From Syntrophorhabdaceae bacterium (GTDB lineage Bacteria > Desulfobacterota > Syntrophorhabdia > Syntrophorhabdales > Syntrophorhabdaceae), in NCBI GenBank assembly GCA_963666485.2, contig CAXXUO010000001.1, forward strand, positions 704,001-768,000: a stretch of 64,000 nt of DNA, read 5' to 3'. How positions within the stretch are numbered: the first letter of the stretch is position 1; each line of letters begins with the position of its first letter. A model generated the notes under the pieces. That model was not told the origin of the DNA and did not search any database. It saw only the letters and a list, made by a program, of their open reading frames with translations. The position numbers were made by a program, and so were the translations under genes. This document shows, one piece after another, positions 1,418-10,248 of the stretch.

Positions 1418-3111
1418 TTCTCCACCCCCTTGAATTCATGGATAAACCCGGGAGATATCTGGATCCCTACATCAAACAGCTTCCCTTCCTGCTCCCAGCC
1501 CCGGATCACGTTGAACTGCTCCTCGCTGTATATCTGGGCATCGTCTGCGTAATCGCTGAGGCCGCGGTCTTCGCATACCTGTTTAAGACAGCCGAGCGCC
1601 AACTCCCTGGCATCCTTGAGCTGGTAGTTGCGCTTGTTCACCTTTCCGCTTAAGCCCCCCGGCGAACCAGAATATGTTTCCCGCCCCGTATCGATATGGA
1701 CCTCGACGGCAAGCGTCGGCCGCGCAACCGCTGCGCCGAGGGCATTGGCCACGGGCGACAGGCGGTGGAGAAAATGCGGGACCTTCATGCGTTCGGCAAG
1801 CATCGGCACGATGGCCGGTGCGGCCGCGCCGATCCCGATCACCTGGTGCAGGTGGAACTCCCTTTTATGAACGACCTCCCACACCTTGTACGCCGGTTCG
1901 TCCTCCCACTGTCTGAACATGTCCTCGATGCTCTGTTCAAGCCTCCGGGCGACCTCATCGGCGACGGTGCGGCAAAGTGTATCGATCGGCATTTTCAAAG
2001 CATCGGCCACGGGGCTTAACGCCGCGTGCGAGGCTTGCGGATTCCCGAGGCCCAGGCTGCTTATGATATTGAAGGCATCGGTCACTGTCGGGGCCTCGCC
2101 GCCAAGACAGGCTGCGGGGCCGAGCCTCATCGGGCCTATTTCGAGTTGTCCATCCTTCACATGCACCGTGCTGTCCCCGCCGAGAGGTATGGAGCTTACG
2201 GCGAACGAGTTGACATGTGTCAGGTGCCCGGCGATAAGCGCCCCGCGCGAGGCATAAAGCGGCTGCCCCTCGATAAGAAGGCTTATGTCGGATGTTGTCC
2301 CGCCGATGTCTATCGAAACGGCGTTGAGCTCTTCACGGCTCAATGCCAGTGTTCCCATCGTGCTTGCCGCGGGGCCGGAAAAAACGGTTTCGCAGGGACG
2401 CTTGCGGCTTGCCGCGAGCGTCGTCGTCCCGCCGTCCGCCTTCAATATGTGAAGCTCGCAATGCGGCACGCGCGCCATGATCGCGGCCTCCATATCGTCT
2501 GCAAAGAGGTTCCACTGGCGGATGGTCATCGCCGTGTAATAACACGTCACGGCGCGCCGGGGAAAATTGAGCCGTCCCGAGATCTCGTTGCTCGTGCAGA
2601 CGTCCATGTGGGGATAGAGGGATTCGGCCATGTTTTTCAGGGCCTTCTCGTGTGCGTCGTTGCGGTTCGAGAACTTTCCCGCGATCGCGACCCGTTCGAT
2701 CCCGGACGCGTGGATCTTTTTTAACGCGTCCTCCATTTCTTTGGGATCGGGCGCCTCTATCTGCCTGCCCCTGAAATCGATCCAACCCTTGAGAAAGTAC
2801 GTGTCAGGACTGATGTCATATGCCGATTCGGGCAGGCCTTTCCCCGGCAGGAGAATGAGGGCTGTTCGCTCCCCCCTCCCGGTGGCGAGCAGGTTCGTCA
2901 CGAGGGTCGTGCTGAGCACTATTCTCCTGATATCCTTTGCCTGCCTGTGTGCAAGGAGGTCGTCGAGAATGAGAAGCAAGGTCGCTTCGAGATCATCCTC
3001 GTCCGTCCTGTGCTTCACGCTGTGCACGACCGATCCTTCACTGAAGAGGACCCCGTCTGTATATGTCCCGCCAACGTCTATTCCGATCAACGCGTCATTC
3101 ATGGATTCCAC
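1414..3111 (-). CDS. Hydantoinase/oxoprolinase family protein (HyuA-like)
   Basis: GIDVGGTYTD, SGPAAS, DIGGTTSD, PTVTDA and ANALGAA motifs; 4-bp overlap with the deacetylase gene. Confidence 0.88.
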   Translation of the reverse strand: MESMNDALIGIDVGGTYTDGVLFSEGSVVHSVKHRTDEDDLEATLLLILDDLLAHRQAKDIRRIVLSTTLVTNLLATGRGERTALILLPGKGLPESAYDISPDTYFLKGWIDFRGRQIEAPDPKEMEDALKKIHASGIERVAIAGKFSNRNDAHEKALKNMAESLYPHMDVCTSNEISGRLNFPRRAVTCYYTAMTIRQWNLFADDMEAAIMARVPHCELHILKADGGTTTLAASRKRPCETVFSGPAASTMGTLALSREELNAVSIDIGGTTSDISLLIEGQPLYASRGALIAGHLTHVNSFAVSSIPLGGDSTVHVKDGQLEIGPMRLGPAACLGGEAPTVTDAFNIISSLGLGNPQASHAALSPVADALKMPIDTLCRTVADEVARRLEQSIEDMFRQWEDEPAYKVWEVVHKREFHLHQVIGIGAAAPAIVPMLAERMKVPHFLHRLSPVANALGAAVARPTLAVEVHIDTGRETYSGSPGGLSGKVNKRNYQLKDARELALGCLKQVCEDRGLSDYADDAQIYSEEQFNVIRGWEQEGKLFDVGIQISPGFIHEFKGVEN

Positions 3112-8470: not shown

Positions 8471-8878
8471 ATGCACGATCCCGATTATCTGCCTGTTGCG
8501 GCTGCGGTCATTGAAAAGGACGGCCGGGTCCTGATCGCCCGCAGAAAACGCGCGTACATGGGATATTACTGGGAGTTCCCCGGGGGAAAGCTCATGGACA
8601 ATGAAACTCTCGAGGAATGCCTGAAACGCGCAATTCTTGAGCAGCTGGGGATAACGATCTCCGTGGGCGACCTCATTTCATCGCGAAAGCACGCGATAAA
8701 CTGCCAGGCCGCAGTCCTTCTCTACGCATATCGTTCTGCCTGGGTATCGGGCAACGTCACCCTCACTGACCACGACGAGATAGCGTGGGTCAAGCCTGAA
8801 GACCTGACCAAATACACCTTCCCCGACCCGGACCAGCAGATAGTCCGCGAATTGCTAAAGAACGGTTCTACGTTCTAG
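8471..8878 (+). CDS. MutT-like NUDIX protein with degenerate Nudix box
   Basis: WEFPGGK...E...RAILEQLG; overall MutT/NudG layout. Confidence 0.8.
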   Translation: MHDPDYLPVAAAVIEKDGRVLIARRKRAYMGYYWEFPGGKLMDNETLEECLKRAILEQLGITISVGDLISSRKHAINCQAAVLLYAYRSAWVSGNVTLTDHDEIAWVKPEDLTKYTFPDPDQQIVRELLKNGSTF

Positions 8879-8954
8879 GTTCTACGTTCTACGTTGAAAA
8901 AAACGAGAGTTTTCTTGTCTTTAACGTAGAACGTAGAACGTAGAACGTAGAACG
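8864..8954. repeat. Inverted heptamer tandem arrays (GTTCTAC)n / (GTAGAAC)n
   Basis: About 4 units on each side of an AT-rich spacer; overlaps the NUDIX stop codon. Confidence 0.85.
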
Positions 8955-9003
8955 ATTTTTATAACCGCTTGCCTAAGCACCTGATTTTTTATACAATTGA
9001 ACC

Positions 9004-9825
9004 GTGCAAAAAGTCCCTACCCGCCTGAAGCTCTTTCTCACCGTCTTTTTCATCGTCATGGTTTTCGGGACGGTGGGCTTCATGTACATCGAAAAGAAAT
9101 CGCTTATCGATTCACTCTATTTTGTCATTGTCACAATGGCGACGGTCGGGTATGGTGACGTCACACCTGCGACCGGCCCCGGCAAGGGCCTCGCCATTGC
9201 GATCATCGTCCTGGGTGTCAGTACGTTTCTCGGTGTTATTGCCGAGGTTACCGAAATGATGCTCGCAAAGCGGGAAGAGGAAAGCCGGATGCAGAAGCTC
9301 AACATGGTGATCGGCGTATTCTTCAGCGAGGTCGGTATAGAACTTATGCGCATATTTTCCCGGTATGATCCCGAGTTCGACTCCATCCGGCCCGGACTTA
9401 TCGTGACCGCCAACTGGACCGAAAAGGATTTTCAAAAGGCGATCAGGGACGCGGGGACACATGATTACGGGGCGAAGATCGAACATGTCGATTTCCCTGT
9501 GCTGAAAGCTTTCCTCATGCAACGCCGCGATTTTCTCGTGCGCCTCCTCGAGAACCCCGTGCTCCTTGAACACCAGTCCTTCACCGACCTCTTGCGGGCA
9601 GTCTTCCATCTTACCGAAGAACTCGCCTATCGCCAGGATTTCGAGAACATCCCGTGGGCGGACAGCAATCATCTCGCGGGGGATATCAAGCGGGCGTATC
9701 ACTACATTGTCGGGGAATGGCTCGTATACATGCAGTTCTTGAAGTCCAACTACCCCTTCCTTTATTCGCTTGCGCTGCGGACGAACCCGTTCAATAAAGA
9801 AGCGTCGGTAACCATCAAGACATAA
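9004..9825 (+). CDS. 2-TM potassium channel with uncharacterised C-terminal domain
   Basis: Selectivity filter TMATVGYGD between two hydrophobic helices. Confidence 0.9.
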   Translation: MQKVPTRLKLFLTVFFIVMVFGTVGFMYIEKKSLIDSLYFVIVTMATVGYGDVTPATGPGKGLAIAIIVLGVSTFLGVIAEVTEMMLAKREEESRMQKLNMVIGVFFSEVGIELMRIFSRYDPEFDSIRPGLIVTANWTEKDFQKAIRDAGTHDYGAKIEHVDFPVLKAFLMQRRDFLVRLLENPVLLEHQSFTDLLRAVFHLTEELAYRQDFENIPWADSNHLAGDIKRAYHYIVGEWLVYMQFLKSNYPFLYSLALRTNPFNKEASVTIKT

Positions 9826-9834
9826 GATCGAGAC

Positions 9835-10026
9835 ATAAAAGAAGCCTTGAACGGGTCGTTGTCAGACGGGTAAATGTTCTCACCCGGAGCGACTGTCCAA
9901 GGCCTTTGAGAGGCTATTCCTGTACCTCGCATGTACTGCTGGTCCCGGTCAACCAGCCCCGTTTTCACTGCCGGTTTTTTCAGTGCCGGTCCGGCAGCGT
10001 CTTTTAGCTCGGGTCAGAATAGCACT
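9835..10026 (-). ncRNA. Candidate orphan structured non-coding RNA (about 190 nt)
   Basis: Own sigma70 promoter, multi-stem 5' domain closed by GCTATTCT/GGAATAGC, long 3' hairpin and U-rich tail; no credible ORF. Confidence 0.6.
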
Positions 10027-10032
10027 AGAGTA

Positions 10033-10060
10033 AATATAGCAGGCATTTTTGATTTGTCAA
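10033..10060 (-). promoter_or_regulatory. Sigma70 promoter TTGACA-16-TATATT with extended -10 TG
   Basis: Minus strand reads TTGACAaatcaaaaatgcctgcTATATT. Confidence 0.7.
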
Positions 10061-10072
10061 GCATCCCCCCCC

Positions 10073-10230
10073 GTCGTCATCCCGGCGCAAGCCGGGATCC
10101 AGGGTCTTTGGCGTTTCTGTAATTGATCAAAACAATGTGTAGTTTAGGATGCGCTTATTGCATGTTATTAATATTATAGAAGAGAGCCACAGACAAAGAC
10201 ACTGGATTCCGGCCTTCGCCGGAATGACGG
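10073..10230. repeat. Inverted pair of REP-like palindromes
   Basis: gtcatcccggcgcaagccgggatcca ... tggattccggccttcgccggaatgac. Confidence 0.8.
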
Positions 10231-10248
10231 CAAGAGTGATGTTTCCAG

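Follow-up and report, generated by a model that had tools for sequence, protein, structure and literature searches.

What does a free-standing structured RNA do in a bacterial chromosome where it leads no gene? The question is raised by the minus strand of the window, a 64,000-nucleotide stretch of a Syntrophorhabdaceae genome (G000), in which an RNA of about 190 nt had been predicted between positions 9835 and 10060. This element is a genuine, conserved and folded RNA gene that was previously uncatalogued, as judged from the conservation of the element, its promoter and its pairing across relatives. Since members of the same RNA family lie antisense in giant phage genes, behind a putative RNase domain, the bacterium seems to keep a phage RNA, which probably blocks a nuclease.

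An uncatalogued RNA gene on the minus strand

The element and its immediate surroundings comprise the following features.

10055..10060, minus: sigma70 -35 hexamer TTGACA, read directly and invariant in 8/8 aligned loci
10033..10041, minus: extended -10, TG-n-TATATT (TATATT at 10038-10033), from the promoter reading and the alignment
9837..10026, minus: predicted transcript of ~190 nt, its start (A10026) deduced from the promoter and its end from the U tract
9913..10023, minus: core domain, a four-way junction of ~115 nt closed by P1 (10023-10016 with 9920-9913), the part common to the phage-embedded copies
9958..10013, minus: P2 arm, with P2a (CCCG/CGGG), an internal loop (near-invariant AGC and an A-rich strand), P2b (9999-9991 with 9974-9966) and loop L2 (9990-9975)
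9938..9957, minus: P3 hairpin with loop L3 (GACCGG, 9950-9945)
9945..9989, minus: predicted L2-L3 kissing pseudoknot (CCGG 9989-9986 with CCGG 9948-9945)
9922..9936, minus: P4 hairpin with a conserved N-GCRA loop
9837..9903, minus: P5 bulged hairpin (9903-9844) and U tract (9843-9837), a probable terminator added only in the free-standing clade
9004..9825, plus: potassium-channel gene (Ion_trans_2), convergent neighbour outside the element
About 10070-10105 and 10195-10236, no strand given: two REP-like palindromes upstream of the promoter, a separate repeat family

The original prediction, a structured RNA that is independent and comes with a promoter and a 3' hairpin of its own, is borne out by the promoter, a strand-specific fold, conservation and covariation. 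The promoter reads directly as TTGACA, a 16-nt spacer and TG with TATATT (11/12 consensus match), and TTGACAA is invariant in 8/8 aligned loci; since the segment 9000-11000 holds two promoter-like sites, this one included, versus 1.8 expected from shuffles, the site count by itself is unremarkable. The minus-strand minimum-free-energy (MFE) fold reaches -71.8 kcal/mol (z -2.78; 3/200 shuffles equally low) and contains all the stems that had been named, at their positions. The plus strand of the same segment gives z -0.10, so the fold is strand-specific. The RNA is made of two modules, the ~115-nt core (P1-P4) and P5. A terminator scan did not call P5, whose stem has internal loops; the 60-nt bulged hairpin and the UUCUUUU tail announced earlier are present nonetheless.

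Full-length homologues, promoter included, were retrieved by BLAST in 7/19 same-genus genomes at 72-86% identity, two further rows being promoter-like matches of 22-23 nt, and RNAalifold on these homologues finds two-sided change in 11/59 pairs. A covariance model of the whole RNA matches in 12 of the 69 family genomes, several matches covering P1-P4 only, and one locus (L033) has P1 and P5 with most of the core gone. A model of the core (R2), which gives 107.5 bits on the window core, scores 25 of the 26 loci recovered by pattern scans of genomes and metagenomes; the record titles of core loci name Syntrophorhabdus, Smithella, Syntrophus, Geobacteraceae and unclassified deltaproteobacteria. 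After removal of identical sequences, and with L070 (cut off) and the core-less L033 excluded, the set amounts to 32 distinct full cores (31 plus L104). In a plain MAFFT alignment of 14 cores, 20/39 pairs change on both sides; the proportion rises to 30/33 for 31 cores (7-14 in slid controls) in an alignment which, unlike the former, was fitted to the model. P5 is conserved with weaker covariation (6/21 pairs). With limited candidates scored in each case, R2 matches only G000 over 151 phylum genomes and gives 11 matches, all in one family, over 96 order genomes. Two genomes have the RNA at more than one locus, in diverged copies (L006 and L034 in G014; L030, L035 and L036 in G081). A weak second hit in G000 (C4, 14 bits) lies in a prophage coding region and was dropped; a Nocardia pattern hit (L060) and L100 were both put down to chance.

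Beyond its helices, the core is predicted to be held together by a kiss between L2 and L3 (-8.2 kcal/mol in the window copy). Across cores, cognate loops average -9.1 kcal/mol versus -3.7 with shuffled L2, and the predicted kiss reaches -7.6 kcal/mol or better in 28/31 cores, in covarying classes. The loop classes ACCGG, GGYCAG and GCCGG change together between L2 and L3: an ACCGG-class L2 paired with a GGYCAG-class L3 gives -3.8, versus -9.4 and -12.4 within class. The kiss is predicted to be lost in L007 and L008 and weak in L005, and the loops of L082 and L085 were placed by hand. Because the kissing loops change together, it is the fold and not the sequence that would be under selection. 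The proposal that an alternative CCGGCAC partner might make the RNA switchable is not supported, since the alternative hairpin gives -6.4 kcal/mol versus -15.7 for the full stem and 0 to -4.6 in the other 30 cores. It is peculiar to the window copy, and the CCGGCAC-side loop bases are predicted to kiss the P3 loop rather than to switch. Pairing of P5 (GUCGCUC) with the P4 loop or the AGC loop, judged by eye, displayed no compensating changes and was discarded.

Metatranscriptomes give a weak hint that the RNA is expressed in relatives. In 4/4 runs from four studies (chosen from 24 listed, with RNA-holder shares of only 0.04-0.07), contigs of relatives cover the RNA; these contigs give neither strand nor level, DNA may be present, and parts of the region without contig cover prove nothing. 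Three of them measure 153-172 nt within about 9844-10006 (cover 9844-9999, 9847-9979 and 9856-9966). One stops at 9844, followed by sequence that we take to be adapter, and the fourth contig continues into the channel side. Transcription in the window organism itself is predicted from the promoter. Many metatranscriptome contigs also match the REP-like palindromes, which form an inverted pair around an AT-rich spacer; the first has 35 BLAST hits in the window genome. Between the NUDIX and channel genes (about 8855-8964), inverted arrays of a 7-nt unit form a long hairpin that attracts spurious Rfam miRNA hits.

Known RNA classes do not account for the element. The Rfam 15 covariance models give no match over 9835-10030 at E<=5, nor at E<=1 for the RNAs at 16 related loci; rows near the window RNA are miRNA-like and WsnRNA46 noise located on the neighbouring repeats. 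As anticipated, it is not 6S, SRP, tmRNA or RNase P RNA, each of which was found above cut-off elsewhere in G000, nor a riboswitch or cis leader, the neighbourhood having no same-strand gene downstream. A bacterial Y RNA was rejected, the Ro60/TROVE gene being absent (0/1; G000 is 99% complete; control positive in 2/14 genomes). The window RNA matches no Rfam ribozyme, a BLAST search for an antisense target in G000 gave no second match above 31 nt, and PADLOC and PHROGs gave no match for five proteins each. We presume some likeness of its layout to phi29 pRNA and the lysine riboswitch, for which Rfam provides no support.

Core copies inside phage genes

Phage polyvalent-protein genes contain eight of the 32 distinct cores, antisense, in frame and directly behind a PBECR3-like domain.

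L035, L036, L058, L082, L085, L091-L093, antisense: embedded, domain-linked cores, each with its own promoter

In G081, two minus-strand cores occupy one 3991-aa prophage protein with SF2 helicase parts (residues about 970-1015 and 3065-3107). Both are in frame, and both directly follow a ~125-aa domain that the protein contains twice. A scan of the 11,973-nt gene for antisense promoter-like sites scoring at least 9/12 yields two, and these are the sites that follow the two domain copies. R2 gives a score at eight of the nine loci of this domain clade; at L084, the remaining one, the fold is shorter and has identical P1 ends. The two distant loci, L082 and L085, bear a 40%-identical version of the RNA with the same helices (21-26 bits). 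Coming from the protein side, 3/3 viral loci have the RNA behind the domain (74-93 bits). Viral pattern scans from the RNA side returned five distinct loci, namely L104, one hit put down to chance and the three known domain loci; since these three had contributed to the patterns, their recovery is not independent. No hit came from viral scans with P5 and strict core patterns, from a single-protein viral scan or from a tblastn search of the phage collection with the domain. Starting from the RNA tail, protein searches gave 0 and 1 hits, too weak for an unbiased count, and L086 was set aside as not being a true domain hit.

Several lines of evidence suggest that the domain adjoining the embedded cores is a BECR-fold RNase. 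It matches Pfam PBECR3 with E-values of 0.006 in G081 and of 1e-4 and 6e-4 in viral homologues, all below the curated cut-off, and 4/17 homologues carry a precomputed PF18812 mark. Its structure model (pLDDT 85.7) gave no Foldseek match at E<=0.001. In a wide structural search, the top eight rows are CdiA-CT toxins, BrnT, colicin D and a toxin-antitoxin complex at a weak Z of 5.3-6.5 (<8), with a Serratia CdiA-CT at 6.5 (rmsd 3.5, 97 aligned), BrnT at 5.8 and colicin D at 5.4. His47 is invariant (11/11) and corresponds to the active-site His described for PBECR in the accessible part of PMC5512222, which also regards polyvalent proteins as likely packaged and injected. Other polyvalent domains may carry antisense RNAs too: a 2598-aa LPD1-containing protein (P0077) has an RNA-shaped tail and a promoter imprint at residues about 1010-1110, behind a small helical non-BECR segment.

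Such imprints are not confined to one protein. The residue pattern that an embedded promoter leaves, [ILV]x6V[NK], is found in 39/94 domain tails (tails of at least 80 residues, 94 of the 159 domains found) versus 30/226 control windows of the same proteins and 5% of shuffles; 55/94 tails are without it. At the DNA level, an antisense site of at least 9/12 lies within 40-340 nt behind the domain in 12/17 BECR loci without a protein partner versus 21/306 control windows, and in 0/2 loci followed by a DUF2283 gene; the loci are kin to each other, and their counts cannot be taken as separate tests. No consistent folding signal emerges from fixed 110-nt windows taken behind the promoters (MFE z -3.0 to +1.7). 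A different conserved RNA-like element of ~175 nt with a terminator is common to five enterobacterial and Aeromonas plasmid loci (six plasmid matches examined among 59 records).

L094:1921-2097, L095:1912-2086, L096:945-1120, L097:1920-2095, L099:1848-2022, minus: second candidate RNA, ~175 nt, facing a solo BECR-like gene

The solo genes (weak PBECR1) facing this element occur on E. coli, Pantoea, Enterobacter and Aeromonas plasmids. The element shows several hairpins, a cloverleaf-like 3' half, a terminator and mostly a sigma70 site, and these loci have no Rfam, PADLOC or PHROGs match. At two phage-like loci (L087, L088), a promoter-like site and then a short structured RNA run antisense behind a PBECR3 domain; the L088 RNA has its own terminator hairpin and both folds are unlike the window family.

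From these loci we would tentatively generalize, with somewhat less than even confidence, that BECR-fold RNases of phages and plasmids without an immunity protein are restrained by opposite-strand structured RNAs of several unrelated folds, whose promoter and RNA are overprinted in polyvalent virion-protein frames. Hosts would steal them as immunity against injected nucleases, the window RNA being such a stolen antitoxin.

Free-standing copies and their possible role

In a tree of the 32 cores with their promoters (156 columns), the 17 copies that have P5 group together (98/97), with nuclease-linked cores as sisters. The window's clade appears nested among nuclease-linked cores, the phage-to-host direction depending on the root given by L082 and L085, a nuclease-linked outgroup on a long branch. 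Most members of the window's subclade no longer have an open antisense frame, and the window core is 50-63% identical to closer phage copies, with frameshifts. The orphan core L104 has kept the codons for the final residues of the domain tail, and L068 has a similar remnant. The element is a member of a covarying RNA family absent from Rfam and of clear phage origin, a conclusion that would stand even if the inhibitor role proposed below were wrong.

The domain is not alongside in 24/32 cores. G000 has no BECR-like domain detectable with a profile of 150 domains (best E 1.2), and PBECR1 and PBECR2 searches of this genome, which had no positive control signal, were empty. Among the 69 family genomes the domain was found in G081 only, which serves as positive control, and G081 alone has it among the 11 family genomes with a core. 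The label of orphan given earlier is thus right for the window genome and wrong for the family, which traces to phage nuclease genes.

Free-standing cores are flanked in various ways. The core-less L033 (1501-1633, minus) has kept promoter, P1 and P5, has lost P2 and P3, and fronts a gene resembling, by eye, a non-specific endonuclease, which suggests that P5 has a role of its own. In L063, L074, L080 and L057, the place of P5 behind the orphan core is taken by different long hairpins or by series of hairpins, and L080 also has a c4-2 RNA (42.5 bits). In L032 (G030:C65), the core precedes two paralogous genes of ~120-170 aa on the same strand, beside an XRE-like gene.

The RNA converges on the end of the channel gene as described, and an adjacent, convergent channel gene is also seen across L001, L002, L003, L005, L077, L079 and L081, which would fit a regulator of that gene. 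However, the RNA is kept without the channel gene in L004 and L006, stands at another, unrelated locus in L007 and L008, and does not overlap the channel coding sequence. The neighbour is therefore incidental, and the channel link hinted at originally is not supported. We consider such a regulator, or a ligand-driven switch whose alternative stem is not conserved, very improbable.

In our preferred explanation, to which we give roughly even chances, the core would be the RNA that partners a phage PBECR3-like BECR-fold ribonuclease, most likely as its inhibitor, and would bind and restrain the enzyme in the manner of a type III antitoxin. In phages, the RNA lies on the opposite strand of the nuclease gene, in frame and just behind the domain, with its host sigma70 promoter also inside the coding sequence. 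As RNA and promoter are written antisense in the nuclease gene, both would travel with the domain as one cassette during polyvalent domain shuffling, and the RNA would be made in the lysogen or producer cell. The compact kissing-loop four-way junction would bind the enzyme as a substrate-mimic or decoy. One lineage would then have left the phage gene, gained the P5 hairpin and terminator, lost the antisense frame and become fixed in the chromosome of this genus, and the window copy would be a host-kept orphan, most likely protecting against virion-delivered RNase. Against this explanation, physical linkage alone would also yield co-occurrence, and kin are not independent. Moreover, an antitoxin without its toxin (24/32 cores) would be expected to degenerate if neither phage pressure nor some new task maintained it.

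That most copies are orphans and still structured under selection would also suit an autonomous phage effector RNA, for instance a tRNA-shaped decoy of host anticodon nucleases or of another host RNA-binding protein. It would ride antisense in polyvalent genes as a passenger, its early expression driven by a host promoter, and hosts would have kept it for the same activity, with the RNase as a fellow traveller or processing enzyme. The P0077 tail stands behind another domain and, by eye, the cloverleaf-like helix order and the shorter L084 version resemble a tRNA outline. However, embedded copies are found behind the BECR domain in 8/8 cases with DNA sequence, orphans have kept BECR tail remnants, convergent promoters also lie behind unrelated BECR genes, except where a protein partner follows, and the L2-L3 kiss would hide the loop corresponding to the anticodon. 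We hold such an effector to be unlikely, though a serious contender.

Each embedded copy is complementary over its whole length to the mRNA of the putative toxin and is preceded by a convergent promoter, as expected if pairing silenced this mRNA in a type I-like manner, by RNase III cleavage or transcriptional interference. The fold would then be only stabilising and the window copy a relic or a trans silencer of related phages. Conservation of the kiss, the N-GCRA loop and the AGC loop across 40-60% identity, the divergence and frameshifts of the window core, which are poor for pairing, and the lack of a target in G000 make this improbable. Tight cassette linkage would suit any ribonucleoprotein, and a compact pseudoknotted junction with conserved unpaired bases could also belong to an activator, guide or scaffold of the nuclease, or to a ribozyme. 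We see no variable guide segment, though, and an activator whose enzyme is absent would be of little use to a host. For a ribozyme, the lack of an Rfam match is joined by the view, in the accessible part of PMC5737381, that self-cleavage fits poorly with terminators and with an association to a single domain; this group of roles appears still less probable than mRNA silencing. An RNA that inhibits the nuclease remains our preferred reading.

Comparison with known RNA-controlled systems

Type I antisense RNAs and the c4/CI RNAs of phages P1 and P4 offer a first parallel, as convergent RNA genes that overlap or face a toxic phage gene. The window RNA has no c4 match in Rfam, and complementarity to the mRNA is true of embedded copies, not of the window copy. 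Type I toxins are usually small hydrophobic proteins according to the accessible part of PMC6563280.

On the protein side, the loci resemble the PBECR polyvalent proteins of Iyer et al. 2017 (PMC5512222, accessible part) in their weak PBECR3 matches, the His and Thr positions, and giant virion-region proteins with SF2 helicase and methylase-like parts. The main text of PMC5512222 contains 0 occurrences of 'antisense' or 'noncoding', and neither that text nor the accessible part of a 2026 BECR classification preprint describes an RNA partner or a self-protection mechanism. No link between RNA and PBECR domains was found in the accessible literature, including PMC5512222, PMC5737381, PMC13551039, PMC12373285, 10.64898/2026.08.28.747851 and 10.64898/2026.09.22.753630; supplements, non-Rfam RNA catalogues and subscription papers could hold the motif. 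An RNA inhibitor could answer how a phage or lysogen survives making virion-fused RNase domains without an immunity gene, and in the host-kept orphan, if real, a single RNA would counter an effector that the phage injects. As small E. coli plasmids carry related BECR genes that face an RNA and its promoter, the idea lends itself to tests in laboratory strains.

Possible functional parallels are the type III systems (ToxIN, CptIN, TenpIN) and AbiF/RCd22, in which an RNase toxin stands beside a pseudoknot-type ncRNA in a phage or mobile context, as the putative RNase domain does here. The AbiF RNA binds its toxin directly and thereby neutralises it, whether supplied in cis or in trans (PMC12373285, accessible part), and type III antitoxins are repeats co-transcribed with the toxin (PMC8860590 and PMC5772629, likewise). 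The predicted L2-L3 kiss provides a pseudoknotted fold, and a BECR-like domain is adjacent in eight relatives (Z 5.3-6.5, Pfam below cut-off), with none found in the window genome. In contrast to ToxI, CptI and TenpI, which are repeat arrays upstream of the toxin, the RNA here stands as a single copy on the opposite strand, with its own promoter, inside or behind the gene of a putative BECR-fold enzyme. As repeats and co-transcription are lacking, we do not file the window RNA as a type III member; the likeness would be one of function.

Finally, the DUF3800-I to -XI, drum and skipping-rope motifs described in the accessible part of PMC5737381 are likewise structured RNAs with 3' terminators tied to one domain, in either orientation, and several unrelated folds serve the DUF3800 family, as for BECR genes. 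Their protein family is different, the window RNA has no Rfam match to them, and they are intergenic, whereas the window core also occurs inside reading frames, where RNA genes are missed by screens limited to intergenic DNA. If our explanation is true, the RNA-controlled toxins would gain a fold not yet represented among them, and a novel gene layout in which an RNA gene and its promoter are overprinted antisense in an ORF.
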